Source: Nanobdellota archaeon
GTDB lineage: Archaea > Nanobdellota > Nanobdellia > Pacearchaeales > GW2011-AR1
Reading direction: 5' to 3'
Assembly: GCA_034716495.1 (NCBI GenBank)
Contig: JAYEHV010000029.1
Coordinates: forward strand, 1-37,295
DNA: 37,295 bases
The position numbers and the translations under genes are program-made. The notes under the pieces are model-generated. The model was not told the origin of the DNA, made no database searches, and saw only the letters and a list, made by a program, of their open reading frames with translations. Positions 4,766 to 30,201 of the stretch are shown here, piece by piece (the first letter of the stretch is position 1; each line of letters begins with the position of its first letter).

Positions 4766-5515
4766 TTACCATTCATCATCAAAATCATCATCAAAATCCG
4801 AGTCTTCCACCCACGGGGCCAACCATTGATGGTATTCAATACCCTTATCTACATATTCTATATGTAAAGGATGATCATTTTTCGTATATAGGGTAAAAGG
4901 TTTTACGAATAGATTTTCTGTGTTCTTTACAACTGATTTAAGAAAGGTCAGATTATATGCACACTGTCCTTGTTTCTCAACCATCCGTTCGGTCTTAGTA
5001 AATTCTCCTATTTGTCCTACGGAATAGTATTGTATTCCTATTGAATCATATTGGATAAAGAGGATGTCAGAATAAATCTTCGCCTTCTCAATGATCTTTT
5101 CTAATTTCCCTCTGTTAATCTCATATTTCTTATCATAATTAATTTTCCGCAAGTTAACGGTTGGAAGATGCTCAAGTTCCAAATCTAAAAGATATAATGT
5201 GTAGGATTCTCCATTTGAAGATAACTTTATGTAATCTTTCTTATCTCTGAGTTTTTTCTCAAGCATTACAGTGGTATCTTCGAGTTTATCTAAGATTTTA
5301 TTTAAATCATCTACATTCAGAGGAAATACTGTATTAATTGGTTCAGTAAGAATATCCTCCAACTTAATGTTTATAGTAGTAACCCTACTTGGATCCATTC
5401 CATCTATTATAATATCGCGCCCCTTGCATTGAATTTCAATCTCATCCATAAAATCCCCTAAAAAAATCATGACTTGTTTGAACAAGGGGTAATTCTTTAT
5501 TTCACTTTTTTCCAT
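4766..5515 (-). CDS. pcn: PCNA-like DNA sliding clamp, divergent paralogue 1
   Basis: 249 aa. IIIDGMDPSRVTTINIKL matches the PCNA ..amDssHvalv.l.L segment. Colinear with the 12988..13818 paralogue: SVGQIGEF/SSGQIGEM, AYNLTFLKSVVK/AYSLLFLKSILK, DHPLHIEY/DHPLKMIF, LAPW/LAPR. Acidic tail DSDFDDDFDDEW. Confidence 0.7.
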   Translation of the reverse strand: MEKSEIKNYPLFKQVMIFLGDFMDEIEIQCKGRDIIIDGMDPSRVTTINIKLEDILTEPINTVFPLNVDDLNKILDKLEDTTVMLEKKLRDKKDYIKLSSNGESYTLYLLDLELEHLPTVNLRKINYDKKYEINRGKLEKIIEKAKIYSDILFIQYDSIGIQYYSVGQIGEFTKTERMVEKQGQCAYNLTFLKSVVKNTENLFVKPFTLYTKNDHPLHIEYVDKGIEYHQWLAPWVEDSDFDDDFDDEW

Positions 5516-5542
5516 TTTATTTTTTCATCTCGTTTTTTTTCT

Positions 5543-7225
5543 TCAATTTTCTTCTTTTTTTAGAATTTCATAAATTATTTTGGCTTCATGGACGGCATCA
5601 TCTAAAGCACGATGGGCTATTTTATATTCTTGGTCTGGAAAGAAGTATTCCCAAGACTCTTGAACAGAGGGAAGCTTTATACCATAATAATCATGAGGGA
5701 TTTTCAAAATATCCCTCGACTTTATCATAGGGTCCCAAAACAGCTCGTAAAACCTAAAGCCCTTATTTTTTAAAAACTTGATATCAAATTCTTGATTATA
5801 TGACGTAGTTGGAAAGGAATGAAATAGTTGTTGTAATTCCTTTCTCAGCTCTTTTAATGTTGGAGAACGATAAGCGACATCAGAATAGGACAAGTCAGAG
5901 TTATCAAAGATCCATGAATTGGGGTTTATTTCCCTACCTTTTTCATGGCACACTTTATTATAAATTTCCTCAATATGACCATCCTTTAAATTAAGCTTGC
6001 ATATTCCAATTTCTATAATACTATCAGTAAATATATCTAAACCTGTTGTTTCTAAATCAATTACTAAAATTTCTTCAAGCGGATCTCTTGGAGTTTCAAA
6101 CCAGAATTTTCTTGCTTCCTCATCAAAAGGAAAAACCTTATTTAAAATCTCTAATTTATGAGGTTGGTCTTCATTTTCTTTCTTATTTAGATGGAAAACC
6201 ATTTTAGCTAAATGTTTATTATAAGTAATTCCATATAATCTATTAACTTCCTCTAATTCCGCATCTATTGCATCTTCACACTCTGCAATTAATTTATCGG
6301 TTAAATCATTAAATAAAGCCTTTCGAAAAATGCGGTCAAACCTATAGGTTATAATCTCATTTCTAACGGTTTCACTATTAAACCATCTTAGAAATGATAA
6401 TTCCTCACTTGCTTTTTTAAAATGCTCTCGTAATGATTCCTCTCCTTTATTGCTAATTAAAATCATCGGATCCTCAGTGTGATTTATCGAATAAAAGATG
6501 ATTCCGGAATCCTTATCAGCCCATATTGGTTCTTCAGGTAATTGAGAATATTTATCATTTAAAAGCTTCAAGAATCTTTCCTTATTCTTTCCTAACACCT
6601 TTGAGAAGTCATAAGCTATGGCCTCTGGATATGTAACAAGAGGTAATTCCAATGAATTAAAGATTGATAATATTTTCTTTCTAAATTCTTTATTTGCTCC
6701 CTTTCTACAGCTCTCTATAGAATTGTAATGAAATTTATTGAATATATTTAGAAATCTTATCTTTGACTTCGTTATAGCGCTTGTTATACTCCTTCGAGAG
6801 AAATGTTCAGATAAATTAGAAGAGTCTCTTAAAAAATCCTTTCTAAATTGTTCTACGATATAATTTAACACGAAAATCTTAGCTTTAATTTTATCTTGCT
6901 CTACTTCTCTGTATTGATGATGAACCTCCCAACCTTTAGGCCAAAAGTCAGTTATTTGATTCTTATTTTTTATAATTTCTAAACTTCTTTTAAGTAATTC
7001 ATATAATTCAGAGAGTAATCCTGGTAAGACACGATCCATAACACCCCAAGATCTACTTAAGATTTGGTCAATCTCATAGTATAATCCTATGAAATCTTGT
7101 CGTGATTGCTCTAATTCTTTGTAATAGCGTGTGCTATTTTGATATTTTATTAATTCTTTCGTCTCTTTTTTGCTGAAATCAAAAGTGAAGTGCTTAAATT
7201 GTTGAACCATTTTTATCTCCTCCAT
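5543..7225 (-). CDS. DEDDh (DnaQ-like) 3'-5' exonuclease fused to a ~370-aa N-terminal region of unknown function
   Basis: 560 aa. The C-terminal ~190 aa carry ExoI VIDLETTGLD, ExoII SYNQEFDIKFL and ExoIII HRALDDAVHEAKI. I recognised no motif in the N-terminal two thirds. Confidence 0.8.
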   Translation of the reverse strand: MEEIKMVQQFKHFTFDFSKKETKELIKYQNSTRYYKELEQSRQDFIGLYYEIDQILSRSWGVMDRVLPGLLSELYELLKRSLEIIKNKNQITDFWPKGWEVHHQYREVEQDKIKAKIFVLNYIVEQFRKDFLRDSSNLSEHFSRRSITSAITKSKIRFLNIFNKFHYNSIESCRKGANKEFRKKILSIFNSLELPLVTYPEAIAYDFSKVLGKNKERFLKLLNDKYSQLPEEPIWADKDSGIIFYSINHTEDPMILISNKGEESLREHFKKASEELSFLRWFNSETVRNEIITYRFDRIFRKALFNDLTDKLIAECEDAIDAELEEVNRLYGITYNKHLAKMVFHLNKKENEDQPHKLEILNKVFPFDEEARKFWFETPRDPLEEILVIDLETTGLDIFTDSIIEIGICKLNLKDGHIEEIYNKVCHEKGREINPNSWIFDNSDLSYSDVAYRSPTLKELRKELQQLFHSFPTTSYNQEFDIKFLKNKGFRFYELFWDPMIKSRDILKIPHDYYGIKLPSVQESWEYFFPDQEYKIAHRALDDAVHEAKIIYEILKKEEN

Positions 7226-7555: not shown

Positions 7556-8338
7556 TTAATCTGCTTCAGAAAAGATTAAACCGCAATCCTCACAGTTTCC
7601 TTTCCAGTATATATTCCCTTTTCTTAGGGTGTTAAAATTCCAAATATTTTCGCTTTCCCTTGCTTCATCATCGTTGAATAAGACAATTTGCTGAACACAT
7701 TTAGTACCGCAATCACATCTTCTGCGTTCTGTTCTACCGATAAGAATTTTTAACCGATCAAACTCAGTTCTATAAATCTTATTAAATATCTCTCTATCTA
7801 TAGTATATCCGTTAATCCATCGGTTCTCGTTATTTGTCGAGCCTTCATTAAAGACCAGTCTAAGAGCGGTAAGGCGCTCCAAGAATCGAGGCGCTCCAGA
7901 TTCCCACTTCCCTAAGGTTAGATCGTTATTACTCGTAATAGTAAATCTGAATTGAATTTGATTTTTGAATTTTTGTAATGATAATACTAAAATATGCATA
8001 CACATTAAACTGGGTTTTGTTGTAATGAGAACTTCGTTTCCCGCTCTCAAAAGTTTCTTGAGGACAATTATACAGTTTTTAACCGTCTCTGGAGTAATAT
8101 CATGACTCGTAGGAAACATGATTCGACCGCTGCGCTTTCGATATCCTTTTTGAAACGCTTTTTTATTTAATTCCATCTTTTTCCAAGTTGTTTCAGTCTT
8201 TCTCTTAAATCTAATGGCCATCTTCTTGGCATAGCAATATAAGCAGTTATTTGAGCATCCAGAATATATATTAACATTGGTATCACACCATTCTTTCGTT
8301 CCTGATGTGATTTTATTCTTTTCTTTTGGTTTTAACAT
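7556..8338 (-). CDS. Radical-SAM protein (SplB/COG1533-like N-terminus), substrate unknown
   Basis: 260 aa. NIYSGCSNNCLYCYAK contains the CxxxCxxC 4Fe-4S/SAM motif in the GC..C.YCYA context typical of the DNA-photolyase-like radical-SAM group. Extra C-terminal cysteines CDCGTKC and CEDC. Confidence 0.65.
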   Translation of the reverse strand: MLKPKEKNKITSGTKEWCDTNVNIYSGCSNNCLYCYAKKMAIRFKRKTETTWKKMELNKKAFQKGYRKRSGRIMFPTSHDITPETVKNCIIVLKKLLRAGNEVLITTKPSLMCMHILVLSLQKFKNQIQFRFTITSNNDLTLGKWESGAPRFLERLTALRLVFNEGSTNNENRWINGYTIDREIFNKIYRTEFDRLKILIGRTERRRCDCGTKCVQQIVLFNDDEARESENIWNFNTLRKGNIYWKGNCEDCGLIFSEAD

Positions 8339-8748
8339 TATTTTATCAACCCCTTTTGTCTCATTTTATTTAATATATTAAAAACTCCCTTAATCGCACC
8401 ACTCCACCCGCCACCGCCTCTTTGCTGTCCAAAAGTTTGATTAAACATTTTAGCTGTAGATCCCATCCGAAACATCTGCTCACATTCTAAATCTGTTGCA
8501 GAATGGCTAATACAATACTGCATAAGCATATTATAGTCGGGATTAGGCGTATTCTTTAAGTCTTTATACTTCTTTTTCCACCAATCGTTATTTTCTTTTA
8601 ACTTCTCTAATTCCCCTGAAGTTATTGAGACTAACTCGCTTGAGTCCACTTTTGGAGTAGTTTTTGGAAGATCATACACTTTAGGCTCTATTTTTTTTGC
8701 TAATTCGGGATATAAATCGCCAAAGGTTTTTTGCTTAGTTTTTTCCAT
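8338..8748 (-). CDS. Hypothetical protein with C-terminal GGGGWSGA motif
   Basis: 136 aa. RGGGGWSGAIKGVFNILNK (8368-8424) resembles KTGGGWSGAFQKAFGLIEK in 14804..15730. Confidence 0.6.
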   Translation of the reverse strand: MEKTKQKTFGDLYPELAKKIEPKVYDLPKTTPKVDSSELVSITSGELEKLKENNDWWKKKYKDLKNTPNPDYNMLMQYCISHSATDLECEQMFRMGSTAKMFNQTFGQQRGGGGWSGAIKGVFNILNKMRQKGLIK

Positions 8749-12987: not shown

Positions 12988-13818
12988 TTAGAACTCATCT
13001 AACTCCTCATCATTGACGAAATCAGCATCTTCGCATCTGGGCGCCAAAAAGTAGCTTAACTCAGACCCTTCAAGAATACTAAATATCATTTTGAGAGGGT
13101 GGTCTGTTTTGAGAGAGACTTCTAATCTTTCGGTAATGGAGGATATTTTTAGAATTGATTTTAGAAACAAAAGTGAATAAGCTCCATTACTGATTCCTGT
13201 AATTTCGGATTCAATTAAATCCTCTATACTCAAATCATATTCCATCTCCCCTATCTGTCCGGAAGAACTAAAGAAGATTCCATTTTCTTCATCCGCCTTC
13301 ATGTTTAGAATCTCAGAATAGATCTCAGCGTCTTTTAAAGCTTCAGAGATTATATCTGTATCCATATCAAAGGTGCTGGGATATTCTATAGATAGTAAAT
13401 TCTCCATTGGAATATCTTCTTGCTCTGTGTCTATCGTTGCTAAACTAAAGGTTCGCTTTCTGGTTTGACCTTCTTGACAGAACTGCATACGGATTTTAGA
13501 ATCTTTTTTATAGTATCCAAACTCTAAAATATCTTTATTATTACTCCTCTTCAAAATCTTAGTAAGATCGTCTAAGTTAAGGCCTATTTTCTCACTATTT
13601 TTGCATGTATAGACATCGAAATTCTCTTGTTTCATGGTAAGTCGGATTAAACAGATGCGGCTTGGGTCCATCGCATTAATTTGCAATTCATCAGAAGAAA
13701 CGTCAATAATACATTCATCTATGATTGAATTGAGTGTTTCTACAATCACGCTGAAGATCTTGCTATTCTCGAGTTTGAAATAAAATATAGGTTCGACCAT
13801 TATTCTATAATCCTCCAC
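12988..13818 (-). CDS. pcn: PCNA-like DNA sliding clamp, paralogue 2
   Basis: 276 aa. ELQINAMDPSRICLIRLTM, SSGQIGEM, TDHPLKMIF and YFLAPRCEDAD follow the canonical PCNA layout. Acidic tail DADFVNDEELDEF. The internal ATG at 13800 (MVEPIFYFKL, TAATG overlap with the upstream stop) may be the true start. Confidence 0.8.
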   Translation of the reverse strand: MEDYRIMVEPIFYFKLENSKIFSVIVETLNSIIDECIIDVSSDELQINAMDPSRICLIRLTMKQENFDVYTCKNSEKIGLNLDDLTKILKRSNNKDILEFGYYKKDSKIRMQFCQEGQTRKRTFSLATIDTEQEDIPMENLLSIEYPSTFDMDTDIISEALKDAEIYSEILNMKADEENGIFFSSSGQIGEMEYDLSIEDLIESEITGISNGAYSLLFLKSILKISSITERLEVSLKTDHPLKMIFSILEGSELSYFLAPRCEDADFVNDEELDEF

Positions 13819-14138
13819 AGTTTTATAGGTTTGCCGCGCCGACCATTCAATAATGAATATCGTTCCACTAGCTTCTTTTTCTCCAATTTCTCAAGATTAT
13901 CGTAAATGGTTGTTCTGCTTAATCCTAAGATTGCCATCAAAGTAGCTGGATCTACTTTGCCTTCTTGACCTCTCTTCAATGGACCATGCTTTTCTAAAAC
14001 CTTAAGAATATCAATCTGAGTTTCCCTCATCCTCTCTATTGTAATGGATTTAGGGAGCGGGGGATTGATTAATTTCCTTGCTTTTTGAATAAAGTCGCTT
14101 TCTGGTTTATTTTCTTGTTTTGGTTTGTTTTTTATCAA
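13800..14138 (-). CDS. Winged-helix transcription regulator (TrmB/MarR-like)
   Basis: 112 aa. ILKVLEKHGPLKRG...LGLSRTTIYDNLEKLEKKKLVERYSLLNGRRGKPIKLWRI shows the HTH plus beta-wing pattern. Confidence 0.7.
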   Translation of the reverse strand: MIKNKPKQENKPESDFIQKARKLINPPLPKSITIERMRETQIDILKVLEKHGPLKRGQEGKVDPATLMAILGLSRTTIYDNLEKLEKKKLVERYSLLNGRRGKPIKLWRIIE

Positions 14139-14479
14139 AATTTTTTACCTCCATAAATCTTTTTTAAAATGGATTTAAATACAAAGTTGATGGATATGTT
14201 TAAGTCTCTTAGTTCATTCAGAAGAGTAGATAAAGTCTGATCTATGCATCTTTCTATAATTTTTTTTATTCCTGTAGATTGTCCTAAATAGCCTTGAGGG
14301 TTCTTAACAAAATCAGGTAAATGGGTAAATTCAATAGAGAATTTTTTTAGATATAATTCTACTTTTTCTAATACTCTAAAATACGCATACTCAATAAGCG
14401 CAATTCTGGTTTCTAAGAATGTATCATGGTTATTGCCCTTAGCAGACCACGTTAATTTTACAGTTTTATTTTTTGACAT
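14135..14479 (-). CDS. Hypothetical protein
   Basis: 114 aa, with 4-nt and 1-nt overlaps with its neighbours. Confidence 0.55.
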   Translation of the reverse strand: MSKNKTVKLTWSAKGNNHDTFLETRIALIEYAYFRVLEKVELYLKKFSIEFTHLPDFVKNPQGYLGQSTGIKKIIERCIDQTLSTLLNELRDLNISINFVFKSILKKIYGGKKF

Positions 14480-14802
14480 TATATCCCCCTTTTTGAAACG
14501 CCCAATTTAGATAAACTAATAGCGTAATCACATTTAGGACAAACAATAAATAACCACCAATTAATACCGTCCGCTAAATCCCAGCCAGAACCGTGATGAG
14601 GATATCCTTGAATCTTCTCATCCTTGATTGATGCCCCGCAAGTACAATTTCCTTGAGAATACATATAATTATGGGCATCCTTGAATAATTTAGGATATAG
14701 GTGCTCAACTAACTCTTCTTTTAAATAATGCCAGAAGAGTTTTTGAGATGTAGCTTCTTTATTCTGTTCATGGTGCAATAATGCCAATTCTGATTCTTCC
14801 AT
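14479..14802 (-). CDS. Zinc-ribbon-containing protein, function unknown
   Basis: 107 aa. CTCG ... CPKC cysteine pairs. Confidence 0.55.
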   Translation of the reverse strand: MEESELALLHHEQNKEATSQKLFWHYLKEELVEHLYPKLFKDAHNYMYSQGNCTCGASIKDEKIQGYPHHGSGWDLADGINWWLFIVCPKCDYAISLSKLGVSKRGI

Positions 14803-14803
14803 T

Positions 14804-15730
14804 TTAATTCTCCTCGTAGAAATTAGTTAGAACTTTATAGGTTAGGTGATCAAATACTTTATATACCCGATCTTCAAAGATTTCTTTAGCAATTTTATAT
14901 TCTTCAGGATATTTTTCTTTATTAGAGCTATAAAAACCATAATCATCAAAATTTAGCTCTTTTAGATCTCCATTTGTTAGAGTTAAAGCGCGTTTTAACA
15001 CAAAATCTAAAAACTCTCCCAATCCCTCATTAACTTTCTTTTGCTTGGATTGATTGAACGAATGACATTTCTCAATTAAACCAAATGCTTTTTGAAAAGC
15101 GCCACTCCAACCACCACCGGTCTTAAGGCTTCCGCCCCATACAGAAGGTAAATGCTTAAGGATTGCTTGATTCTCTTCTTTTTGTCGATTTTGCGCAAGA
15201 TAAATCATTACCTTTAGCTTTAATAAAAATGCTAAAGGAATATCTGAGGATTGCTTTAAGTAGGCTTTTATTCCGTCTAATTCTGTTATATCTGTTAATG
15301 CTTTTTTTTCTTCAGGAACAAATTTCTTTTTTTGATGAGTGGTCATCAATCTTTTTGATGAGTGGTCATCAATCTGCTTTATTGGTTTTTTTGTTTTAGG
15401 TTTAATTTTCACTGCGCCCTTCTTTATTTCAAGGTTTTCTTGGTTAGGTTGCTCTTGCTTTTTTTGATGAGTCCTCGGTTTTTTTGATGAGTGGTCATCA
15501 ATCTTAGGATTATTTTCTACAAAGGTAGTTAATGCCCTACCCTCGCGCTCTTGAGTTATTATGACTAATTTTAGTTCTTCTAATGGTTTAATATATCTAG
15601 TGCCTAAATTACCTAAACCGATCTTGGTTTCTTTGGATAATTCTGTTAAAGAAAGAGCTTTAGAGTGCTTTTTTAAAGCATCTATTATCTTTTGCTCATT
15701 TTTTTTTAATTTTCGTCCTGAACTATTCAA
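14804..15730 (-). CDS. wHTH protein with lysine-rich repeat linker (hosts the palindromic DNA repeats) and a GGGWSGA-motif C-terminal domain
   Basis: 308 aa. The N-terminal IIDALKKHSKALSLTELSKETKIGLGNLGTRYIKPLEELKLVII is a wHTH. The linker repeats IDDHSSKKPRTHQKK and IDDHSSKRLMTTHQKKK. KTGGGWSGAFQKAFGLIEK lies at 15068-15124. Confidence 0.65.
   Translation of the reverse strand: MNSSGRKLKKNEQKIIDALKKHSKALSLTELSKETKIGLGNLGTRYIKPLEELKLVIITQEREGRALTTFVENNPKIDDHSSKKPRTHQKKQEQPNQENLEIKKGAVKIKPKTKKPIKQIDDHSSKRLMTTHQKKKFVPEEKKALTDITELDGIKAYLKQSSDIPLAFLLKLKVMIYLAQNRQKEENQAILKHLPSVWGGSLKTGGGWSGAFQKAFGLIEKCHSFNQSKQKKVNEGLGEFLDFVLKRALTLTNGDLKELNFDDYGFYSSNKEKYPEEYKIAKEIFEDRVYKVFDHLTYKVLTNFYEEN
15332..15372. 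repeat. Two tandem copies (23-bp period) of the perfect 18-bp palindrome TTGATGAGTGGTCATCAA
   Basis: Copies at 15332-15349 and 15355-15372. Each is a 7-bp inverted repeat (TTGATGA/TCATCAA) around GTGG, with conserved flanks ttt...tct. Confidence 0.9.
15464..15501. repeat. Half-site TTGATGAGT (15464-15472) plus a third full copy of the palindrome (15484-15501)
   Basis: Exact third copy of TTGATGAGTGGTCATCAA, about 130 bp from the tandem pair. The left half-arm recurs 20 bp upstream of it. Confidence 0.85.
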
Positions 15731-15935
15731 CCTTTCTTGTATCCTCTTTTACATTCGCGTTTAATTTGAGTTTCTTGATTTCTTGGTATTTCTCATCTAA
15801 AAGTAATCGAATAACTGATGTACTTGTTCTTTTTTTGTACCAAGATTTCACAACTTCGAGCTTTTCTTGATCTTCGCTTTTTAGATTCAATCTAATTTCT
15901 AAATTTTCACTAGAATCCTTCTTTTCATCAGCCAT
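15723..15935 (-). CDS. RHH-like protein, first gene of the left array
   Basis: 70 aa. LEIRLNLKSEDQEKLEVVKSWYKKRTSTSVIRLLLDEKY fits strand-helix-helix. Preceded by a 250-bp AT-rich non-coding region. Confidence 0.5.
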   Translation of the reverse strand: MADEKKDSSENLEIRLNLKSEDQEKLEVVKSWYKKRTSTSVIRLLLDEKYQEIKKLKLNANVKEDTRKVE

Positions 15936-16120
15936 AGTAAATCCACTTTTTTTCCGTTTTTTTAGGAGTTTTTTTTGTTGTAATTTTAGTTTATTTTTTA
16001 ACTATTTAAACTCTTCCATCGAAACTCCATCCATGCTACAAAAAGTACGGAGGATCAAAGATAAATAAGAAAAAAGACAGTAATATTTTATAAAAACAAA
16101 TCTTAAAAGAAGTATAAGGC

Positions 16121-16147
16121 TTAATTAATTACATATATTAATTAATT
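16121..16147. promoter_or_regulatory. Twin TTAATTAATT boxes (17-bp spacing) flanking a TATA-like ACATATA; candidate operator/promoter of the plus-strand RHH gene
   Basis: TTAATTAATT occurs at 16121-16130 and 16138-16147. Each contains the palindrome TTAATTAA. They lie 38-64 nt upstream of the ATG at 16185. Chance occurrence in AT-rich DNA is not excluded. Confidence 0.3.
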
Positions 16148-16184
16148 CATTAAATCAAATACTCTAATGTAAAAAGGTAATTTC

Positions 16185-16358
16185 ATGCCGGATATTGAAG
16201 ATGAAGAGAAAAAGGAAAGAGAGCTAAGAGTTTTACTAAAGAATAAATATTTTGCTAAACTTGAAATTATTAAGGATTTTTTAGGGATTGAAAATAACGC
16301 TGATATTATTCGATATTTAATTACTAAAGAATCAAGAGATATTGAAAAAACGTCATAA
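16185..16358 (+). CDS. Small RHH-like protein (57 aa); the only credible plus-strand gene
   Basis: MPDIEDEEKKERELRVLLKNKYFAKLEIIKDFLGIENNADIIRYLITKESRDIEKTS. AAGGT lies 6 nt upstream of the ATG. Strand-helix-helix pattern similar to 15723..15935. Below the track cutoff. Confidence 0.45.
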   Translation: MPDIEDEEKKERELRVLLKNKYFAKLEIIKDFLGIENNADIIRYLITKESRDIEKTS

Positions 16359-16501: not shown

Positions 16502-16696
16502 TTATAGTTGAAGTCCTATTGAGCTATAAAGCTCTTTTTGGTATTCTACTAAATTACGTAAATCTTGAATAATAAGCGCTCCAAGCTCTATATTTCTGTC
16601 TTTAGCAACTCTTTCTAACTTATTATGTAGTGTAATCGGAATATCTAAACATACCGGTTCCGTTTGCTTCTTTTGTACTGACTCGTTTTTGATTAT
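16502..16696 (-). CDS. RHH protein (64 aa) with no canonical start codon anywhere in frame; apparent ATA start
   Basis: The frame is open from the TAA at 16702-16700 to the TAA at 16504-16502 and contains no in-frame ATG/GTG/TTG (checked triplet by triplet). ATA at 16696-16694 lies 6 nt after GGGGA (16707-16703). Encodes (I)IKNESVQKKQTEPVCLDIPITLHNKLERVAKDRNIELGALIIQDLRNLVEYQKELYSSIGLQL, a clear strand-helix-helix pattern. Confidence 0.5.
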   Translation of the reverse strand: MIKNESVQKKQTEPVCLDIPITLHNKLERVAKDRNIELGALIIQDLRNLVEYQKELYSSIGLQL

Positions 16697-16747
16697 TTTT
16701 TATCCCCAATCCCTATTTTTGGTTTTAGATAATTTTGATAAAAATTG

Positions 16748-20956: not shown

Positions 20957-23900
20957 TTAAAATTCTACTCGTTTCTTCTTATATTCGGACTCTAAGAGCT
21001 GTAATGCTTGACTAGGATTTAGATTTCTCTCTGTAATGCTAAGTTGCATTGCTTTATTGAAAATGTCTTTTGGCTTTTCATCTGTTCCGGCAATTTTTAA
21101 AGCAATATCCGTGTCTTTGTTGTCCCATGCCCAATTCTGCTGATATTTAAGCGCATTAATTAGCTCTCCCTTTTTCATCCTATGTCGTCCTACGATTTTC
21201 TCTTTCTGTGCTACTTTGTAGATTTGGTTTCTTGTTAGCTCATGTAATTTCTCTGTATGAGGTAATGTTCTAATCGTTGCTTTTGATTCTTTCTGAACGG
21301 CTTTTGGTGCTGATCCTTTAACTAAACCTCGCGCTCTTTTGTGTTGATAAAACTCAGAGGTTTGAAATTTCTCAGCATCTGTGCCTTCGGATCGCTTGAT
21401 AAATTGCTTTACCCAAGCCATTCTATCTTTCTTAGTAGGACATTCACGATCTCCTTGCGCACCATAGAATTGAGGGTATTCGTCTTGAAGTGTAAAATTA
21501 AACGCATTATATTCATTATAGGCTTTTCTTCTCTTTAGAATACGCTCTGCAAATCCTCCAAAATCGTCTTTATATTCAACGATAATAGGTTGTTCTTTTC
21601 CAACGGATACCCTCATAGCACGACCTGCGGTTTGCATAACTGAGATGGGACTATATTCTTGTGATGCCCCAGCACCTAAAATTACATCTAATGCAGGTAG
21701 ATCAAAGCCCTCACTAAGTAAAGACCCTGTGCCAATCGCGATATTTGTTTTTCCCGATTCAAGCATTTTCTTATTAGTTTCAATATCAGATTTCTTCATC
21801 TTTTTAAGTTTTCCGCTCGCATCTCTCTTCTTTCCCGCTAGTAATACTGGTTTAGTGTTTGGATACTCTTTTTCCAATAGTTCTTTTAGATCGTTTGCGT
21901 GATTCAATGATTTAGTGAATATAATGGTCTTTTTCCCTGCTGTATGCATTCTATTTGCGTGATCGATAATCAGATCGTTTCGCGCTTCGTTCTCCTCTAC
22001 TTGCGCTCTTACTTTAGCGGTAAATTTGTTTTTTATTCCATCTCGATCCATGATATAATCTATTTCAGATTCTAAGTCCTTGCGTTTTGGAATAGGAATA
22101 ACAACGACATTAGGTTTCATTAGCATTCCCCTATCTTGCGCTTGTTTGTACGTGATTGGAATCCTTTTATCTCCGATTTTCATAACTCTAAGGATGTCGT
22201 CTTGCGCATCTCTGCTTGGTGTAGCTGTGAGTCCAAATTTATGAATCGTCTTATTTTCGTCATAAACGCTATCAAAGCTTCTAGCTGTAATATGATGCGC
22301 TTCGTCTTGAATGATTATCTCTGATTCTCTGAGTATTTTTAGACAAATTTTATCCTTTTCGCTAAGTGTTTTTCCCTCCTCAATTTTTTTTATTGCACTA
22401 TGCATCCCTTGAATTGTTCCTACATTAATATCTGCTTCATCTGTCCAGCTAGGTGTGAAATTTTCGCTATCTAACAGTCCAATATTTACATCTTCAGGTA
22501 GGAATTTATCAAACGCCTCTTTCGCTTGGTCTCGAAGCGTACCTCGATGAACTAAGAAAAGTGAATCAACATCTACTTTTTTACCCGTTTTCTCTTCGTA
22601 TTTTTCTGCACCTTTTATAAATCCGCTTATAACTCCCGCCGCCATCATGGTTTTTCCCGTACCAGTCGGAGATACAATAAGTCCTTGCCCTTCAATCAAG
22701 CTTTCTAAAACTGCTTGCTTTTGATAGTTATAAAGGTCCACTCCTTTAAGTTCGGGATTGGAGACTGGAGATCGTTCTCTTGTATCTGCTACGGCCACAT
22801 CAAAATTATAGGAACGCTTTAACAACCAATAGGCTTTTGATAATAAGCCAATAGGCATAACATATTCCCCTTTATCGTTAATTTCTACGGCTGCATATAC
22901 CTCATCTTTTTTCCCGCGCTTTGACATCGTTCTTTTATAAGCTGTATTTAGAACATCCATTGCCAATTCTTGATCTTTTCTCTTATCACCTGGATTTTTG
23001 GAACCAGATTTGAGTACGACATTATTTCCATGAACCTCAAAAATAAATGCGTTCGAATCAGAGTGAAGAACAATCTCTTTTTGAATATTTGCTTTCTCTA
23101 ACCATTCTTTTTTAGTGTCGTTTTGACCAACGATAGAATAAAGAAGATCTTCTCTCCCATATCTATCGTTTCTATCTTTAAACTCGTCAATAACGCTTTC
23201 CAGATCGTCAGCATCTATAACAAATTGACTCCCTTGAACCCATCTGCCCCCATGTTTATCTCTAACTACTTGCAAGAAAGTCTCGTAGTTAGCGCCTCTC
23301 ACTTTGTAGTTTCCACCTTCGCCTATGTTATCCCAAGAGAGTAAAATTTTATCTCCGTTTTCGCTAAGTTTAACCATGATTGTAGCGCTTTTAGGGTCTT
23401 CTTTCCCCTTAAAAAATTCTTCGAAAAATGGATTCTCTATTGTTTCTACTGCTCCCTCCTCTTTCTTCAGTTGCTCTAAAGTTTTAAAATTAAACCTGTC
23501 AGCTTCGCTTAATTCCCCGTAAAAATCGTCATGCCAGCCCTCGTTTTCCGCAAGAATTTCATCCTCTACTAAGACTCGGAATATGCTGTATAATCGGTTT
23601 GCTTCTGCTCTTTCGTCTTCGATCTCTTTTTGGATTTTTTCTTTCTCTGAATTATCCTCAGACCACTCATATCTCTTTTGAAGATCGTCTATTGCGCTTA
23701 ATTTCGTGATCCATTGCTTATAGACCTCACTATCTACAAGTTTCTCTTCAATGATAATTCTCTGGATTTCTTTTTGCGAAATTCCAAATAGTTCAGGGTC
23801 TAATACTTCTTCCTGAATCCTCTTTTGAATTTCTTCAATTGAATCCTCTTTTGCCTCCTCGATATCTTCTTTAATAATTTCCTTTACTTCATCTTCGGTG

Positions 23901-24103
23901 ATTAAAGTTTTTGCTTTTCCCTCTTTCACTTGTTTTTTTGCTTTCTCGGAGAGTTCGGGTTTAACATGGACCTTTTTCTTATGGGAGCTTACAGTTTCAA
24001 CCTTACCCCCTTTAACGCGCTTATATTCATCTATCTGGCGCTCTTGGGTAGGATACCATTTAAGAAGGGAAAGTTGAGTTTTTTCTTTGGTTTTTTTTGC
24101 CAC
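20957..24103 (-). CDS. SF2 DEAH-box helicase (ResIII/XPB-UvsW-like core) with long N-terminal extension, shared N-terminal module and C-terminal HeH/Rho_N-like motif
   Basis: 1048 aa, GTG start. Q motif YNYQKQAV. Motif I VSPTGTGKT. Motif II IIQDEAHHI. Motif III GLTATPSR. Motif V LSEGFDLP. Motif VI QTAGRAMR. C-terminal LHELTRNQIYKVAQKEKIVGRHRMKKGELINAL resembles Rho_N/SAP helix-extended-helix. N-terminal YKRVKGGKVETVSSHKKKVHV...EGKAKTLI is the shared module. Confidence 0.85.
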   Translation of the reverse strand: MAKKTKEKTQLSLLKWYPTQERQIDEYKRVKGGKVETVSSHKKKVHVKPELSEKAKKQVKEGKAKTLITEDEVKEIIKEDIEEAKEDSIEEIQKRIQEEVLDPELFGISQKEIQRIIIEEKLVDSEVYKQWITKLSAIDDLQKRYEWSEDNSEKEKIQKEIEDERAEANRLYSIFRVLVEDEILAENEGWHDDFYGELSEADRFNFKTLEQLKKEEGAVETIENPFFEEFFKGKEDPKSATIMVKLSENGDKILLSWDNIGEGGNYKVRGANYETFLQVVRDKHGGRWVQGSQFVIDADDLESVIDEFKDRNDRYGREDLLYSIVGQNDTKKEWLEKANIQKEIVLHSDSNAFIFEVHGNNVVLKSGSKNPGDKRKDQELAMDVLNTAYKRTMSKRGKKDEVYAAVEINDKGEYVMPIGLLSKAYWLLKRSYNFDVAVADTRERSPVSNPELKGVDLYNYQKQAVLESLIEGQGLIVSPTGTGKTMMAAGVISGFIKGAEKYEEKTGKKVDVDSLFLVHRGTLRDQAKEAFDKFLPEDVNIGLLDSENFTPSWTDEADINVGTIQGMHSAIKKIEEGKTLSEKDKICLKILRESEIIIQDEAHHITARSFDSVYDENKTIHKFGLTATPSRDAQDDILRVMKIGDKRIPITYKQAQDRGMLMKPNVVVIPIPKRKDLESEIDYIMDRDGIKNKFTAKVRAQVEENEARNDLIIDHANRMHTAGKKTIIFTKSLNHANDLKELLEKEYPNTKPVLLAGKKRDASGKLKKMKKSDIETNKKMLESGKTNIAIGTGSLLSEGFDLPALDVILGAGASQEYSPISVMQTAGRAMRVSVGKEQPIIVEYKDDFGGFAERILKRRKAYNEYNAFNFTLQDEYPQFYGAQGDRECPTKKDRMAWVKQFIKRSEGTDAEKFQTSEFYQHKRARGLVKGSAPKAVQKESKATIRTLPHTEKLHELTRNQIYKVAQKEKIVGRHRMKKGELINALKYQQNWAWDNKDTDIALKIAGTDEKPKDIFNKAMQLSITERNLNPSQALQLLESEYKKKRVEF

Positions 24104-24150
24104 TTTTTTTTAAACCTCTTTTTTTTTGCTTATTTTCTAGATTTGTTTTT

Positions 24151-24162
24151 TTCTTTATATGT
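24151..24162 (-). promoter_or_regulatory. TATA-like box (ACATATAAAGAA on minus strand) in the 110-nt gap upstream of the helicase gene
   Basis: This is one of the few real intergenic gaps in the right array. The box lies 48-59 nt upstream of the GTG start, with AGAGGT 10 nt before the start. Sequence-only guess. Confidence 0.25.
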
Positions 24163-24213
24163 TTTTAGGTAAATTGTGAAATTCCTTTAAATTTTCTAAT
24201 TTTTCTCATTTTT

Positions 24214-25647
24214 CTATTTAAAATTTGATAGTTTTTTATATTTTGATTGTTCTTTCGCACTTAGGCCTAAATCCATTGCTTTTTCATTTACTCCTGCAAA
24301 TCCTAAGATTCCCTTTTGACTTTGACTTGTCTTAAAGTTCTCTAATGACTTATCTACCACTTTTGACTTATCTACAAAATCTTTAAGTTCAAATGGTTTG
24401 ATTTCTTCTTTTTTACTTTTTTTCATCCCTAAGAACTTATCTAAATCTGTTGTTGGAGATAATTTTAAATGGGATAAGTTATATTCATCGATCCAGGAAT
24501 TATAGACATTAGTTTTCTTTCTGACAAGAGCATCATATTTCTTAATTAATTCTTCGTCTGCGACATCTGAAAGTTCTATTTTGTTGAGTAGTTTCGCCTC
24601 TTGTTCTTTTAATGTAGTATATTGGTGTAGTTTATGAACTGAAAGTTCCCGCCGCCCTCCAATTAGTTTATCGGGATGAGGATCGTCTAATAGTTCTACT
24701 CTAAATTTAGCTTTATCCCAATTTGAAGGGTCTAAGGAATAAGTTCTTACCCCTGTTTCTGCTTCAAATAAAAGCCTACCCGCAGAGTATTTCAATAGTA
24801 ATAGAGGATCTGCAATTAAATTCTTGTATCTTTTATCATTCTTGAAGTAATTATTTATGATCTTTTTGGATAATTGATAGGTAGATATATCAGTTTTAAG
24901 GAATCTTGCTAATTGCTCCGGGTCTTCTATATTCATAATAATTGTTTGAGCGGTCGTTGGAGTTAGGATAAATTCTGGTTTCATTACCTCTAAGTTAGAA
25001 ATATCACCTCTACTAGGTAAGGGAAACATATGATCGGGGTGTGTATGACCAAATAACTCAAAATCATTGAGTTTTAAAGTGTAATCTTTCGCACCTTTCA
25101 TAATGTATAACCGTTCCGGATTGGAATCTTCTCGTTCAAAATCAATAGCAAAACTATATTCATACGGACTAAATCTGGATATCTCCCTAATTCCTTTTAG
25201 CATGTTATAGGGGATCTCCTTTACCATCGTTTGTTGTGGTTTGCTTCTATTCGCAATATTTAGGTCAAATGTGCCCTTTTTTATATAGATTGATTGTTCT
25301 ATAACATCAAGAACCTTTTCTACTTTGTCGTAAGATACACCGTACTCATGATGACCGAGAGGATAATCTTGCATGATGTCTATGATTTTTTTCTCTTGCC
25401 ATACATTAGTCACCACGCCCTCTATACCAGATAGTTTATATTTAACGCGATCTCCATACTCAAACATTTTAGGTTGAATTAATTGTTTGCTGGATCCTGC
25501 TATTCGATTTTTATTTCTTATTTCTCTTGCACTTCTTTCTCGATAACGATAAGTAACCTCATGAGCAGGAACCACCACTACTTTCCCGTTCTTTTTGGTA
25601 TAGGTATATCCTTCTCTTCGCTTCTTTTTATCGTAATAATTAGCCAT
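24214..25647 (-). CDS. JAB/MPN-like metallopeptidase-motif protein with the shared N-terminal module
   Basis: 477 aa. GHTHPDHMFPLPSRGDI (25003-25047) fits the JAMM signature HxH-x(7-8)-S-xx-D, with 8 spacer residues instead of the canonical 7. Candidate upstream Glu in AIDFEREDS. N-terminus KKRREGYTYTKKNGKVVVVPAHEVTYRY...AGSSKQLI. Confidence 0.5.
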   Translation of the reverse strand: MANYYDKKKRREGYTYTKKNGKVVVVPAHEVTYRYRERSAREIRNKNRIAGSSKQLIQPKMFEYGDRVKYKLSGIEGVVTNVWQEKKIIDIMQDYPLGHHEYGVSYDKVEKVLDVIEQSIYIKKGTFDLNIANRSKPQQTMVKEIPYNMLKGIREISRFSPYEYSFAIDFEREDSNPERLYIMKGAKDYTLKLNDFELFGHTHPDHMFPLPSRGDISNLEVMKPEFILTPTTAQTIIMNIEDPEQLARFLKTDISTYQLSKKIINNYFKNDKRYKNLIADPLLLLKYSAGRLLFEAETGVRTYSLDPSNWDKAKFRVELLDDPHPDKLIGGRRELSVHKLHQYTTLKEQEAKLLNKIELSDVADEELIKKYDALVRKKTNVYNSWIDEYNLSHLKLSPTTDLDKFLGMKKSKKEEIKPFELKDFVDKSKVVDKSLENFKTSQSQKGILGFAGVNEKAMDLGLSAKEQSKYKKLSNFK

Positions 25648-25650
25648 TTT

Positions 25651-26871
25651 TTATATCACCAATTTTTTAGGTTTTGGAGGAAGATATTTCCTTACTTCGT
25701 CCTCCGTATAAGTATAATCTTTCAAACACCAAATCCCGCGCTCTATATTTTCAAATAACTCATCCTTATAGCTTGAAAGAGCAGAGCGTATTTTTTTTGC
25801 TTCTAATCCCGTAATTGCCACGATTTTTTGTATATTTACTACACCTTCTTGATGTAAAGCATTAAATATTTTGTCTTTATTCTGTAATGGTTGTAGGCTT
25901 ACTTCCTTTCGAGCAAACTCCCAGTCTAATTGTTCAATCGCTTTTACTAAATCGGTCCGCCTAACTTTTATTGTATAATCTTGCTCTATCTGATTTGCAA
26001 ACGGATATAAGAATCCTTTTAATTGTCCTCTGGTGAAATCACTCACAGAGCATTTTAATCTTTCCAACTCTGTTCGTAATGCATCTTTAAGAAGGCCAAG
26101 TAAAAAGGCTTCATCAATTGACCTATCAATCACTACATCATATTTTACCTGTTCTTTAGAGGAGTAGGGAACTTCAATCGTGGCCGTTTGACCGGTCTTC
26201 GCTTTAGCTAAACAAAATCTTAGAGCGTCAAAATTAAACCCTACTTGACCCTCCCATGTCGCTAATCGTAATAATTCTGATTGTTCTGGAGTGAAAATCT
26301 TATGAAACCAATTTAGATCATAATAACTTGTATAGACTTGTAATATTGAATTTTCTCTAAGAGTCGCATCTAAGCGCGAATATACTTGAACAGCAAAAAT
26401 AAAAAATATTATTCCATTTTTCTCATAAAGATCCTCTAATACATGCCTCGAAACACAGAATTGTTGTGTAATTTCGACATTATCCCCTGACATAGACCTT
26501 CGTGAATCTGTACCTTCACCAATAGCATCATCTACTACAATAACTAATACATGCTTACCCTCAAAATATTCGCTATATCGCTTATCGCCAATCACGCGCG
26601 GATCATTGGTTGCAACTACACTAATTAATCCTTCATAGTCAGGAATAGAGCGGAGTAATTCTACTAAATATCGGATTAAAACAGACTTGCCCGTCCCCTG
26701 CCCTCCTATAAAGGACATTGCTTTTAGAACCCATTCGTGAGGAGTATTCTCACATTTGAGAATATGTAATAATAATTCTTTGGGGTTTAATACCTCGTAA
26801 TCCTTCCCATTAACATTGATATTATGAGTGTTTAAAAATGGATTTTTACCTACTTGAACGAATCCTGGTAT
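25651..26871 (-). CDS. P-loop NTPase with C-terminal wHTH; N-terminus extended to an apparent ATA start
   Basis: Walker A GGQGTGKS and Walker B HVLVIVVDDA. C-terminal NIQKIVAITGLEAKKIRSALSSY is wHTH-like. The track start (26718) lies 5 residues before the P-loop. The frame is open for 52 more codons up to the TAA at 26877-26875, with no ATG/GTG/TTG. ATA at 26871-26869 is the second codon after that stop and lies 6 nt after GAGTGA. Confidence 0.65.
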   Translation of the reverse strand: MPGFVQVGKNPFLNTHNINVNGKDYEVLNPKELLLHILKCENTPHEWVLKAMSFIGGQGTGKSVLIRYLVELLRSIPDYEGLISVVATNDPRVIGDKRYSEYFEGKHVLVIVVDDAIGEGTDSRRSMSGDNVEITQQFCVSRHVLEDLYEKNGIIFFIFAVQVYSRLDATLRENSILQVYTSYYDLNWFHKIFTPEQSELLRLATWEGQVGFNFDALRFCLAKAKTGQTATIEVPYSSKEQVKYDVVIDRSIDEAFLLGLLKDALRTELERLKCSVSDFTRGQLKGFLYPFANQIEQDYTIKVRRTDLVKAIEQLDWEFARKEVSLQPLQNKDKIFNALHQEGVVNIQKIVAITGLEAKKIRSALSSYKDELFENIERGIWCLKDYTYTEDEVRKYLPPKPKKLVI

Positions 26872-26877
26872 TTTTTA

Positions 26878-27495
26878 TCACTCTCTAACTTTTTGTTTTT
26901 TTTTATCAAAAATACCATGTTTCTTTTTTAATAGAGGATCATTTGGCATAAGCGTATCTTCGTCAAGTTTGCTCATTGCATCTGCATCTGCACCAACTTG
27001 TGCGTTATAAGGGATTCCATATTTTCCACAGTTCTTAAGAAATGTATTTCTTCTTTTCTCAGCTTTATTTATGAGATCTTGCTTTCCAATATTAACCGAA
27101 TGTAATTGATATATTAATTTTTTTAGCTCGATTAGTTGGTCCTTTAACGGTTCAAAACCTTCCTTTCTAAATTGGATGAATTTTGGAGAATTTTCACCAA
27201 GTTTTTCTTTTGCTTGTGTAATATTTGTATAATCTATATCATCTAGTTTTCTTTCTAATTGTGAGATTGGTTTGAAAACTTCACATGTAGTATTATGGCA
27301 AATCTTTAAATCAACAATAGACCTTTTCAGTAATTTGAATCTATTTAATATATCTCGATCTTCATACCATTTATCTTCTATCTCGTTCCAAATATCACCT
27401 CGCGGAATTAATTCCTCGATCGTTTCTGATAATTCTTCAATCTTTTCCAATGCTTGTTTGAGTTGTTTTGCTAATACTTCAGGATCTTCTTCCAT
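26878..27495 (-). CDS. Coiled-coil protein, function unknown
   Basis: 205 aa. Heptad-like Glu/Lys/Leu-rich sequence. Confidence 0.6.
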   Translation of the reverse strand: MEEDPEVLAKQLKQALEKIEELSETIEELIPRGDIWNEIEDKWYEDRDILNRFKLLKRSIVDLKICHNTTCEVFKPISQLERKLDDIDYTNITQAKEKLGENSPKFIQFRKEGFEPLKDQLIELKKLIYQLHSVNIGKQDLINKAEKRRNTFLKNCGKYGIPYNAQVGADADAMSKLDEDTLMPNDPLLKKKHGIFDKKKQKVRE

Positions 27496-27496
27496 T

Positions 27497-28723
27497 CTAA
27501 CCCCCCTCTAATTCGTCTCTGATTACAATTTGGTTGAGTTTTTTAGCGTCTCCATTACCGCCGAGCTTTTCTTTGAGTATATTATTCTCAGCCATTAGAT
27601 AGTTCATCTGATTCCTTAATTCTTGTGTGTCTTCGCTATTTTGAGCTAAAACTTCACTTATTATTGTCTTGATTTCTTTGTCCTCTCGTTTTCCCTTAAA
27701 CGCGGTTGAAAGTATTTCTGCGTAAGTATCGGGATGCATCACACTAGCTTGATTTACTTTTACTGCCATATCTCCTAATTTCGAATTGAAATTTCTAAAC
27801 ATTTCGGCAATTTGGTCTCTAGCTTGGTTATATTTCTTATCCAATTCGATGTATTGCTTGGTTATTTTAGCAACTTTTAGGTCCATTAAACTTTTGAGAT
27901 TGTCAATGTGCGGTTGTTTTAGGATTGCTTCGTTAAGGTTTCTGGTTTTTATAATCTTGTGTTTAAAATGAGTTGCTTTAATGCTTCCCGTCTTTACATT
28001 TTTGTCTCGCTTTAGATCTTCTATTTCAAATAGAGTTAGGTTTTTTGCTTTTCTTTCTTTAACAATCATACCCTGTTTCTCGTCTATAATTTTCTTTCTG
28101 TAGGTCACCTTTTGAGCAACCGTTCTAATCCGATCAAATAATAATTGATGTTGTAGAGTGTGGATTTTGTTTATTAAAATGGGATTTCCATCATTATCCA
28201 ATTTATCTTGAAATTCTATCGTAAGATATAGCTTTCTGGAAATGCTCGTACTTGGAAGAATTGCGCTTAATATCCTATAAATTACGTATTTAGCTGTATT
28301 AGATTTGGATTTAACTCGTTCTTGTTCTGGGAATTTTAGAGAATCATCTAATTTTGTTTCACGATAAATTATATCGGAGAAATACTTCAAGATTCCAAAC
28401 GAGAGATATGTATGATCTCTAACTTCAGTAAAAGAATATTTACACCTGACAATATTTATTTGATTATGTTTAAACATCAATTTCCAATAATTTGGGAAAT
28501 CTGGATCTTTTTCTTGGGATACAAAACGACCTAAATATATACTTTCTCCATTCTCATCTTTGAAATAACAATAAGGCGATAATGCAACTCTCCAAATTCT
28601 TATAATCATTAAGGATGTAAAAGCCGAGAATAACCAAATAAAAATAGGATTAGCGTTAAACCAATCGAAGATTTGTAATACAAAATCTATTGGTGCGAAT
28701 GTAGGATCATCACTAAATATCAT
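27497..28723 (-). CDS. N-terminally membrane-anchored coiled-coil protein
   Basis: 408 aa. One hydrophobic helix near the N-terminus (PIFIWLFSAFTSLMIIRIW), with long helical Lys/Glu-rich C-terminal stretches. Confidence 0.65.
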   Translation of the reverse strand: MIFSDDPTFAPIDFVLQIFDWFNANPIFIWLFSAFTSLMIIRIWRVALSPYCYFKDENGESIYLGRFVSQEKDPDFPNYWKLMFKHNQINIVRCKYSFTEVRDHTYLSFGILKYFSDIIYRETKLDDSLKFPEQERVKSKSNTAKYVIYRILSAILPSTSISRKLYLTIEFQDKLDNDGNPILINKIHTLQHQLLFDRIRTVAQKVTYRKKIIDEKQGMIVKERKAKNLTLFEIEDLKRDKNVKTGSIKATHFKHKIIKTRNLNEAILKQPHIDNLKSLMDLKVAKITKQYIELDKKYNQARDQIAEMFRNFNSKLGDMAVKVNQASVMHPDTYAEILSTAFKGKREDKEIKTIISEVLAQNSEDTQELRNQMNYLMAENNILKEKLGGNGDAKKLNQIVIRDELEGG

Positions 28724-28727
28724 TGAT

Positions 28728-29042
28728 TTAAGCCCCTCCGATTAATTGAAAAAGTAATGCTAAAAGATCTTCCCAGTCTCCCAGAATCCATGAAAACCAG
28801 AATATAAACAATCGTTTATTCATTTTATCTATTCTAAAAATGCTTACGGGGATTGTTTCGTAATCCACAATATAGAAGAATGCAAATAATGTAGAGAATA
28901 TTAATCCTATCCCCCAGTTTTGAATAATAGTTTCGGGATTCAAGACAAATAATACCTGTGTTATAAACGAAAACATTATTGCATACAATACCGCATAGAC
29001 AACATACCTAACCTTTTCATTAAACTCTTCTCTTCTTGACAT
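28728..29042 (-). CDS. Small membrane protein (about 3 TM)
   Basis: 104 aa. YVVYAVLYAIMFSFITQVLFVL, GIGLIFSTLFAFFYIV and LFIFWFSWILG. Confidence 0.6.
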   Translation of the reverse strand: MSRREEFNEKVRYVVYAVLYAIMFSFITQVLFVLNPETIIQNWGIGLIFSTLFAFFYIVDYETIPVSIFRIDKMNKRLFIFWFSWILGDWEDLLALLFQLIGGA

Positions 29043-29069
29043 ATTTTTTTCATACCTCTTTTCTTTTTT

Positions 29070-30196: not shown

Positions 30197-30201
30197 TTTT
30201 T

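Follow-up and report, generated by a model that had tools for sequence, protein, structure and literature searches.

Exact dyad repeats in the linker-coding DNA of an archaeal winged-helix gene as candidate intragenic autoregulatory operators

The 37,295-bp contig JAYEHV010000029.1 of a Nanobdellota archaeon (assembly GCA_034716495.1), analysed here in its entirety and referred to as the window, carries three exact copies of an 18-bp element and one half-site within the coding sequence of a 308-amino-acid (aa) winged helix-turn-helix (wHTH) protein. The array is real and non-random, and almost certainly one of protein-binding sites embedded in coding DNA. We tentatively propose, with a probability of roughly 40%, that its members are candidate cognate sites for the protein's own winged helix and act as intragenic autoregulatory operators. 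The product of the gene is identical to the deposited U9Q73_01885 from a Nanoarchaeota metagenome-assembled genome, and the gene and its sites are arranged as follows.

14804..15730, minus strand: gene of the 308-aa protein, with a TTG start and an 8-nt overlap with the upstream open reading frame (ORF); encodes a wHTH domain, a disordered linker, the 'GGGWSGA' module A and module B.
15512..15709, minus strand: coding region of the winged-helix domain (aa 8-73), candidate binder of the sites.
15239..15505, minus strand: coding region of the disordered basic linker (approximately aa 76-164), which carries all four sites.
14807..15238, minus strand: coding region of module A (LPxxWGGxLxxGGGWSGA, approximately aa 165-224) and module B (YPEEYK..IFE.., approximately aa 231-308), the latter with a tail resembling a PCNA-interacting protein (PIP) box.
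15484..15501: site A, exact 18-mer (23-nt unit 15482-15504), first site in the direction of the gene, read as IDDHSSK.
15464..15472: half-site TTGATGAGT, one arm plus two core bases with the other arm degenerate, read in the other frame as THQ.
15355..15372: site B, exact 18-mer (23-nt unit 15353-15375), read as IDDHSSK.
15332..15349: site C, exact 18-mer (23-nt unit 15330-15352), 23 bp from site B, read in the other frame as LMTTHQ.

The three copies of TTGATGAGTGGTCATCAA are identical in orientation, and no further match was found elsewhere in the 37-kb contig at up to three mismatches. At least three matches occurred in 0 of 100 dinucleotide shuffles (shuffle mean 0.04), and a looser scan, allowing five mismatches or restricted to the 14 arm positions with up to three, returned nothing beyond the shuffle background. 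The original prediction, which had placed the copies and the half-site by eye, seen no others in the window and judged a chance origin very unlikely, is borne out in these respects. It had also described a perfect 18-bp palindrome. The copies are indeed exact, but the symmetry is limited to the 7-bp arms TTGATGA/TCATCAA, i.e., 14 of the 18 positions; the core GTGG is asymmetric and points in the same direction in every copy, and the true unit of identity is 23 nt (TTTTGATGAGTGGTCATCAATCT, exact three times) rather than 18. This 23-nt array has the highest Tandem Repeats Finder score of the contig (94 against 57 for the runner-up) and is both its only iteron-like cluster and its strongest short-range repeat.

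The sites are grouped into two doublets 129 bp apart, one formed by site A and the half-site, which starts 20 bp from the copy at 15484, and the other by sites B and C. Repetition is confined to the 23-mers, the DNA between the doublets not being repeated. Within each 18-mer the 7-bp arms and 4-bp core place the half-site centres 11 bp apart, and every site is flanked by A/T tracts. Candidate matches outside the contig were rejected. Four single-copy matches of the exact 18-mer in viral contigs are attributable to chance (unrelated contigs, different GC content and no shared proteins), and the only match of the tandem-site pattern in the JGI metagenomes lies on a satellite-like, unrelated contig, L136. 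Positions 1432-1500 of that contig carry the 23-nt tandem TTGATGAGTACTCATCAACAGAC, identical in arms and period, which was judged a coincidence because no genes are shared and the context is that of a microsatellite.

The copies of the array are translated in two frames. Sites A and B encode IDDHSSK, while site C (LMTTHQK) and the half-site (THQ) are read in another frame. On the coding strand the motif is open in two frames only, the third reading T-TGA-TGA, and the spacings within the doublets, 23 and 20 nt, are both 2 modulo 3 and so shift the motif between the two open frames. The doublets themselves are mutually in frame (129 nt), which produces the 16-aa peptide repeat IDDHSSK..THQKK. 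A repeat kept at the coding level would have a period divisible by three and encode the same peptide, as in the genuine peptide repeat of the relative L128 (KRIE three times, in-frame 12-nt period), whereas here the periods are 23 and 20 nt and two peptides result. Since the same 18-mer is read in two frames, the repeat is maintained at the DNA level and not at the peptide level; this argument is the best available stand-in for a conservation test against relatives. Each unit could also form a hairpin of -5.9 kcal/mol in the sense RNA or -6.8 kcal/mol in the antisense RNA (z-scores of about -3 to -4). The 196-nt repeat region folds with a z-score of -3.2, but the unit hairpins are all absent from its centroid structure. 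The two-frame reading, the weakness of the hairpin and the dyad symmetry together point to duplex DNA recognised by a dimeric protein.

The wHTH assignment and the placement of the repeats in a linker, both made originally from the letters alone, agree with structure prediction. AlphaFold2 models aa 8-73 as a winged helix of three helices and a β-hairpin (pLDDT 93-97), leaves aa 82-164 disordered (pLDDT 30-40) and renders the C terminus helical at low confidence; all four sites map to the disordered linker, at aa 77-134. Foldseek returned weak matches to wHTH domains of the MarR/ArsR/TFE type, the best with an E-value of 1.2e-2 and none at or below 0.001. The linker region contains no stop in the annotated frame compared with 5 and 9 in the other two, and because of this, and because the fusion of HTH, linker and module recurs in distant relatives, the linker is really translated. 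The 308-aa protein has no Pfam or NCBIfam match, and thus belongs to no curated transcription factor family (MarR, ArsR, PadR or similar). A single weak match of unknown function was obtained in PHROGs (E = 0.0073) and only weak, unrelated ones in a PDB profile search, and Pfam, NCBIfam and tblastn against phages and plasmids revealed no homology to the initiators lambda O, Rep_3, Orc1/Cdc6, PrimPol or HUH.

Close relatives of the protein were found neither among approximately 15 billion proteins nor by DNA pattern scans. A word-indexed search and an exhaustive HMMER search yielded the query and otherwise only distant, domain-level matches. The HMMER search, of 1.84 billion representatives, gave 14 weak ones, and from these, together with a profile search, we defined a family. 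It is modular, with an N-terminal HTH of several unrelated types followed by a Pro/Lys/Glu-rich linker and then by module A, which takes the form LPxxWGGxLxxGGGWSGA or EIRKGGGHSGATK. Module B (YPDEFK..IFE..) is a separate small ORF in the relatives and is fused only in the window protein; the modules are unnamed in every library searched. The PIP-box-like tail of module B reads YKVLTNFYEEN (14807-14850, minus strand). Similar tails end P0002, P0004, P0006 and P0014, the relatives' forms being NEIIEGFY, KEILDGVW and NDIIEGVF. A putative PCNA-tethering role for the tail is possible; the element encodes two PCNA homologues (12988-13818 and 4766-5515).

Of all the comparisons, the most informative is the one that connects repeat and DNA-binding domain in these distant relatives. 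Relatives with the same type of wHTH as the window protein (L125, L131, L132 and L134; 37-44% identity) each carry three to five sites of the CCTACGACCC type, whose full form, TCCTACG-ACC-CGTAGGA, has 7-bp arms and a 3-nt core and thus repeats the design of the window sites. These sites occur in both orientations with a 22-23-bp period, at -120 to -30 around the TATA-like box of their own gene, and are present whichever module A variant follows the wHTH. L135 is nearly identical to L125 at the C terminus but differs in its HTH, and has ACTATC/GATAGT repeats at least six times instead, while L127, with another HTH type, has TGGCAAC four to five times around CTTTATATAG. The repeat sequence thus varies with the type of HTH and not with the C-terminal module: each set of sites goes with the DNA-binding domain encoded next to it, which is the signature of a protein and its cognate site. 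Together with the two-frame reading and the 11-bp spacing of half-site centres, this upholds in a general sense the original suggestion of dimeric-regulator operators or iterons.

Operators on the gene's own promoter are found in L125, L127, L131, L132, L134 and L135, and this position argues for autoregulation in the relatives. Linker-embedded sites are not unique to the window, since L127 has three GTTGCC copies within its linker-coding DNA (P = 0.002), two of which lie 13 nt apart in different frames. In L125 the unit of promoter, sites and wHTH is duplicated (5851-6206 and 7954-8378, approximately 2.1 kb apart) with different C-terminal variants, which indicates domain shuffling by duplication. 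A GC-rich, self-complementary stretch at 5480-5830 of the same contig, in a long intergenic region upstream of the family gene, and with it a conserved inverted repeat, CTCTCAGGGCTGAGAAAAACCCTT..., found in L129 and L131, may represent a non-coding RNA or an attachment (att) region. A likeness between the half-sites GATGACC of the window and TACGACC of the relatives was rejected as evidence because the half-site geometry differs.

The gene of the 308-aa protein is the second in a leftward gene train. The features that bear on its expression and on the alternatives weighed below are these.

15723..15935, minus strand: 70-aa ORF, first gene of the leftward operon; ribbon-helix-helix (RHH)-like by eye, with no family match in support.
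14479-14802, minus strand: 107-aa ORF of the leftward gene train.
14135-14479, minus strand: 114-aa ORF of the leftward gene train.
13800..14138, minus strand: second winged-helix protein, 112 aa, HTH_24/MarR/Lrs14-like; alternative candidate binder in the same operon.
12988..13818, minus strand: PCNA homologue, 276 aa (Pfam 1.5e-18), in the same gene train; marks the replication module.
15936..16184: intergenic promoter hub with no copy of the 18-mer; contains the least stable 60-bp duplex of the contig and a (TTAA)n palindrome.
8338..8748, minus strand: paralogue of module A without an HTH, 136 aa, carrying ...QQRGGGGWSGAIKGVFNILNKMRQKG; the element thus holds both fused and free copies of module A.

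We envisage autoregulation proceeding in the following way. The four sites would offer sequence-specific docking for dimers, most probably of the winged helix encoded approximately 10-270 nt upstream in the same gene, and would have been written into the disordered linker as the one coding part that tolerates them. Each 7-4-7 site could take one dimer, its half-site centres being one helical turn (11 bp) apart, and in the B-C (23 bp) and A/half-site (20 bp) pairs neighbouring dimers, which may bind cooperatively, would be separated by about two turns and lie on much the same helical face. The doublets, 129 bp apart, might then be bridged by the C-terminal modules on their 80-residue flexible tethers. 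Accumulating protein would in this way coat its own gene body and block or loop the template ahead of RNA polymerase. Expression of the 308-aa protein and of the downstream 107-aa and 114-aa ORFs, the second wHTH protein and PCNA would be damped, while the first gene of the operon could still be expressed. An 8-nt overlap with the upstream ORF leaves the window gene without its own promoter, and the autoregulatory sites of the family would for that reason have moved into the only tolerant coding segment. The autoregulatory reading hence extends the pattern seen in the relatives.

Several observations weigh against this proposal. No copy of the site, nor any credible degenerate copy, is present in any promoter of the window, and the operator on the gene's own promoter is therefore missing; with the promoter copy of the relatives absent, the partner for looping is lost and the output would be a pure roadblock. 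We know of no established archaeal precedent for roadblock autoregulation from four intragenic sites. The second wHTH protein (13800-14138) and several small RHH-like ORFs are equally close candidate binders. The C-terminal modules have no meaningful match in Pfam, NCBIfam, PDB profiles or phage and plasmid tblastn. Finally, with no close relatives, purifying selection on the 18-mer cannot be shown, and the identical 23-mers could also represent a recent duplication.

The main alternative, to which we give a somewhat lower probability than to autoregulation, is a replication origin inside the gene of its own initiator, as in phage lambda. The 308-aa protein would then serve as the initiator that binds the origin, with the four sites as its iterons. 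Their place in the inter-domain linker would keep the binding domain and its site specificity together in inheritance and favour action in cis. Dimers on the sites would bend the DNA or wrap it into a complex resembling the O-some, and the C-terminal modules could recruit the superfamily 2 (SF2) helicase of the element and/or, through the PIP-like tail that ends module B, PCNA. The layout is that of lambda, with 3.5 dyad-symmetric sites in an inter-domain linker approximately 58 aa longer than that of the relative P0009. The asymmetric core orients all copies alike in the manner of iterons, A/T tracts adjoin every site, the cluster is the sole one of its kind in 37 kb, and the 22-23-bp period of the relatives is the classic iteron period. 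The order of the operon, in which an RHH-like ORF comes first and the 308-aa protein second with PCNA downstream, recalls orf56/orf904 of pRN1 (PMC4234260). The PCNA gene, three genes downstream, is consistent with the replication context proposed at the outset. A Pfam scan, which covered 38 ORFs and left out twelve small ones, recognised no Orc1/Cdc6, MCM, PrimPol, HUH Rep or Rep_trans, and hence no other initiator among the ORFs scanned.

An origin, one of the four roles offered by the original prediction, would nevertheless be expected to have an AT-rich unwinding element, and a stability scan found none adjoining the sites. The repeat region is 62-70% AT, windows of 60 bp over 15250-15550 are 58-75% AT and of average stability, and the stability minimum of the contig (60 bp at 16081-16140, 87% AT) lies approximately 580 bp away in the hub. 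The 308-aa protein is not homologous to any known initiator, and the sites of the relatives straddle a TATA-like box, which is more simply explained by autorepression. GC skew cannot locate an origin because the contig is open and nearly all genes lie on one strand. The hub segment at 16081-16153, between divergent small ORFs, includes a (TTAA)n / TAATTAATTACATATATTAATTAA palindrome and could be either a promoter hub or a candidate unwinding element.

A broader version of this idea, which we consider less likely still, is that the relatives and the window protein constitute a new family of archaeal origin-binding initiators (swappable HTH, disordered linker, 'GGGWSGA' module and PIP-like tail), with the origin inside the family's own linker-coding DNA. 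A newly made winged helix, whose coding sequence ends at nt 225, would meet the first site at nt 230 and act in cis, with loading of the PCNA or helicase that the element itself encodes left to the C-terminal tail.

The same architecture might instead serve a different role, such as a centromere-like partition site or a packaging or recognition site, or consist of operators for another protein of the locus, namely the 70-aa RHH-like protein or the MarR-like wHTH protein at 13800-14138. Short heptad-type inverted or direct repeat arrays are typical of RHH-bound centromeres and operators, and parS of B. subtilis is a known case of a centromere situated within the gene, spo0J, that encodes the protein binding it; several small RHH-like ORFs and the second wHTH gene lie within 1.5 kb. 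We nevertheless find this family of explanations improbable. No ParA-type ATPase, ParB/ParR adaptor, integrase, capsid or terminase was recognised in the ORFs scanned with Pfam, which leaves the partition role put forward originally without a partner protein, and the covariation in the relatives ties the repeats to the HTH of the same gene rather than to neighbouring genes.

A functionless, recent local duplication of a 23- or 46-nt segment in a mutation-tolerant linker, its dyad symmetry being fortuitous, would account for the 100% identity of the copies, as expected of young duplicates, and for doublets that are in frame and yield a 16-aa peptide repeat, and there are no relatives at hand to show conservation. 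It is nonetheless very improbable, considering that a unit symmetric at 14 of 18 positions would have been copied out of frame and landed each time in a stop-free frame, that only the 23-mers and not the DNA between the doublets are repeated, and that unrelated site clusters accompany genes of the family at six or more other loci. Least probable of all is a role for the repeats as RNA or single-stranded DNA hairpins (7-bp stem, 4-nt loop) recognised by a nuclease, nicked by a rolling-circle Rep or pausing the ribosome, as the original prediction had in part allowed: the fold energies and z-scores given above, and the existence of archaeal rolling-circle origins with hairpins such as that of Rep-Arvir (PMC13107129), speak for it, but the stems are short, AU-rich and weak and none survives in the region's centroid structure, the ORFs scanned revealed no endonuclease of the HUH or Rep_trans type and no Rfam match was found, and three identical tandem units with a half-site are more in keeping with dimers that recognise duplex DNA than with a single nick site.

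The wider gene content of the contig offers some context for the array. Its other genes encode a second PCNA-like protein, a DEDD exonuclease, a radical-SAM protein, a 1048-aa SF2 helicase and a 2359-aa surface protein, and the contig contains no tRNA and no Rfam match; from this content and these absences it looks like a plasmid- or virus-like element rather than core chromosome. A sigma-70 promoter and terminator scan showed no enrichment, the model not being applicable to archaea. At 16503-16697 (minus strand) an open frame with a clear RHH-like sequence, CLDIPITLHNKLERVAKDRNIELGALIIQDLRNLVEY, has no ATG, GTG or TTG start, and may have a non-canonical start or be a decaying gene. The 57-aa ORF at 16185-16358 is RHH-like by eye, with no library in support. 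A 40-nt direct repeat (83% identity) at 1941-1980 and 2293-2332 lies at the starts of the neighbouring small ORFs 1657-1956 and 1949-2308, which suggests a tandem gene duplication.

Members of the family sit on elements of approximately 30-36 kb with a 497-aa tyrosine integrase, one of which was assembled twice in differing permutations and is hence circular. L129/L130 (JGI 3300032118, ENA ERZ27247687), L125 and L131 share this integrase, a large protein bearing a carbohydrate-binding module (CBM) and a gene of the HTH-GGGWSG family, and appear to be an undescribed group of integrative archaeal elements. Between the window (20957-37281) and the related element L137 (JGI Ga0117908_1005072, 23.9 kb), the genes from that of the giant surface protein through to that of the SF2 helicase are shared at 44-70% aa identity, but downstream of the helicase the genes of L137 are entirely different, with no hub/wHTH/PCNA module and no comparable repeat cluster. 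A conserved core is here combined with a swapped regulatory or replication module. Two further searches were unproductive: the degenerate DNA pattern WGG..GGGWSG over genome contigs was swamped by GC-rich chance matches, an Asgard (Wukongarchaeum) contig being the sole true one, and the single match of a related-locus search, a high-GC phage, was a false positive.

The mobile elements of DPANN archaea and Nanoarchaeota are known almost exclusively from metagenomes, and their origins, initiators and regulatory circuits are uncharted. The locus offers a concrete candidate pair of protein and DNA, a winged helix of 80 residues with a site of 18 bp, in an uncharacterised, modular protein family carried on elements of approximately 30-37 kb that include at least one circular molecule. 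If the sites are operators, a cognate operator would have been moved from the promoter into the coding sequence of its regulator, with the disordered linker serving as writable space. Should they instead form an origin, the lambda design of an origin inside the initiator gene would extend to archaea and provide a replicon for vector building, and, if the family as a whole consists of initiators, no self-embedded iteron origin would have been described before on a mobile element associated with DPANN archaea. In either case, DNA and protein codes overlap here, as the confinement of the spacing to the two stop-free frames illustrates.

The array has features in common with several known systems. 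Like the wHTH autorepressors of the MarR, ArsR and Lrs14 types, the 308-aa protein has a wHTH fold and a dyad site with half-sites approximately one helical turn apart, and in its relatives the sites lie to either side of the TATA-like box in the promoter of the gene itself. It differs in having no Pfam or NCBIfam membership, no site on a promoter of the window, and a long disordered linker with novel C-terminal modules in place of a dimerisation domain. Auxiliary or roadblock operators within genes are represented by lac O2 in lacZ, gal OI in galE and purR O2 in purR, the last in the regulator's own gene. These systems likewise place operator copies, there of high affinity, within coding sequence that follows the promoter, but they combine a promoter-proximal partner with one intragenic site, whereas the window has four intragenic sites and no promoter copy.

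Iteron plasmids with Rep proteins of the pSC101, pPS10 and F type, whose iterons are approximately 22 bp and whose promoters are overlapped by inverted repeats, share a winged-helix binder and a 22-23-bp period with the family, and the combination of direct copies with an inverted copy on the gene's own promoter is met in the relatives L125, L131, L132 and L134. Here, however, there is a single small wHTH without Rep_3/WH1-WH2 homology, and the window sites are intragenic and individually dyad-symmetric, with no DNA unwinding element found adjoining. A further parallel is the replication operon of pRN1, in which orf56, encoding a CopG-like repressor, precedes orf904 (PMC4234260); both operons begin with a small RHH-type gene followed by that of a protein with a putative part in replication control. 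ORF904 is a primase-polymerase/helicase, unlike the 308-aa protein, which has no enzymatic domain, and the origin of pRN1 lies downstream of the gene and not within it.

A striking similarity in layout is that to the lambda origin, whose iterons are 19-bp imperfect inverted repeats (PMC7466680). In both cases the gene of a DNA-binding protein contains several dyad sites of about 18-19 bp in the stretch that encodes the linker joining its N-terminal DNA-binding domain to its C-terminal effector domain, and the gene heads a replication module; the number of sites alters the length of the linker, extra iterons in Stx phages lengthening O by 13 residues (PMC7466680). Unlike those of lambda, the window sites have no adjacent AT-rich region and form two doublets 129 bp apart instead of one even row, the 308-aa protein is not homologous to O, the host is archaeal, and any origin activity is putative. 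A protein gene that carries its own cognate sites is thus a design already known from lambda O and its origin and from intragenic operators, and it is met here in an uncharacterised archaeal protein family.

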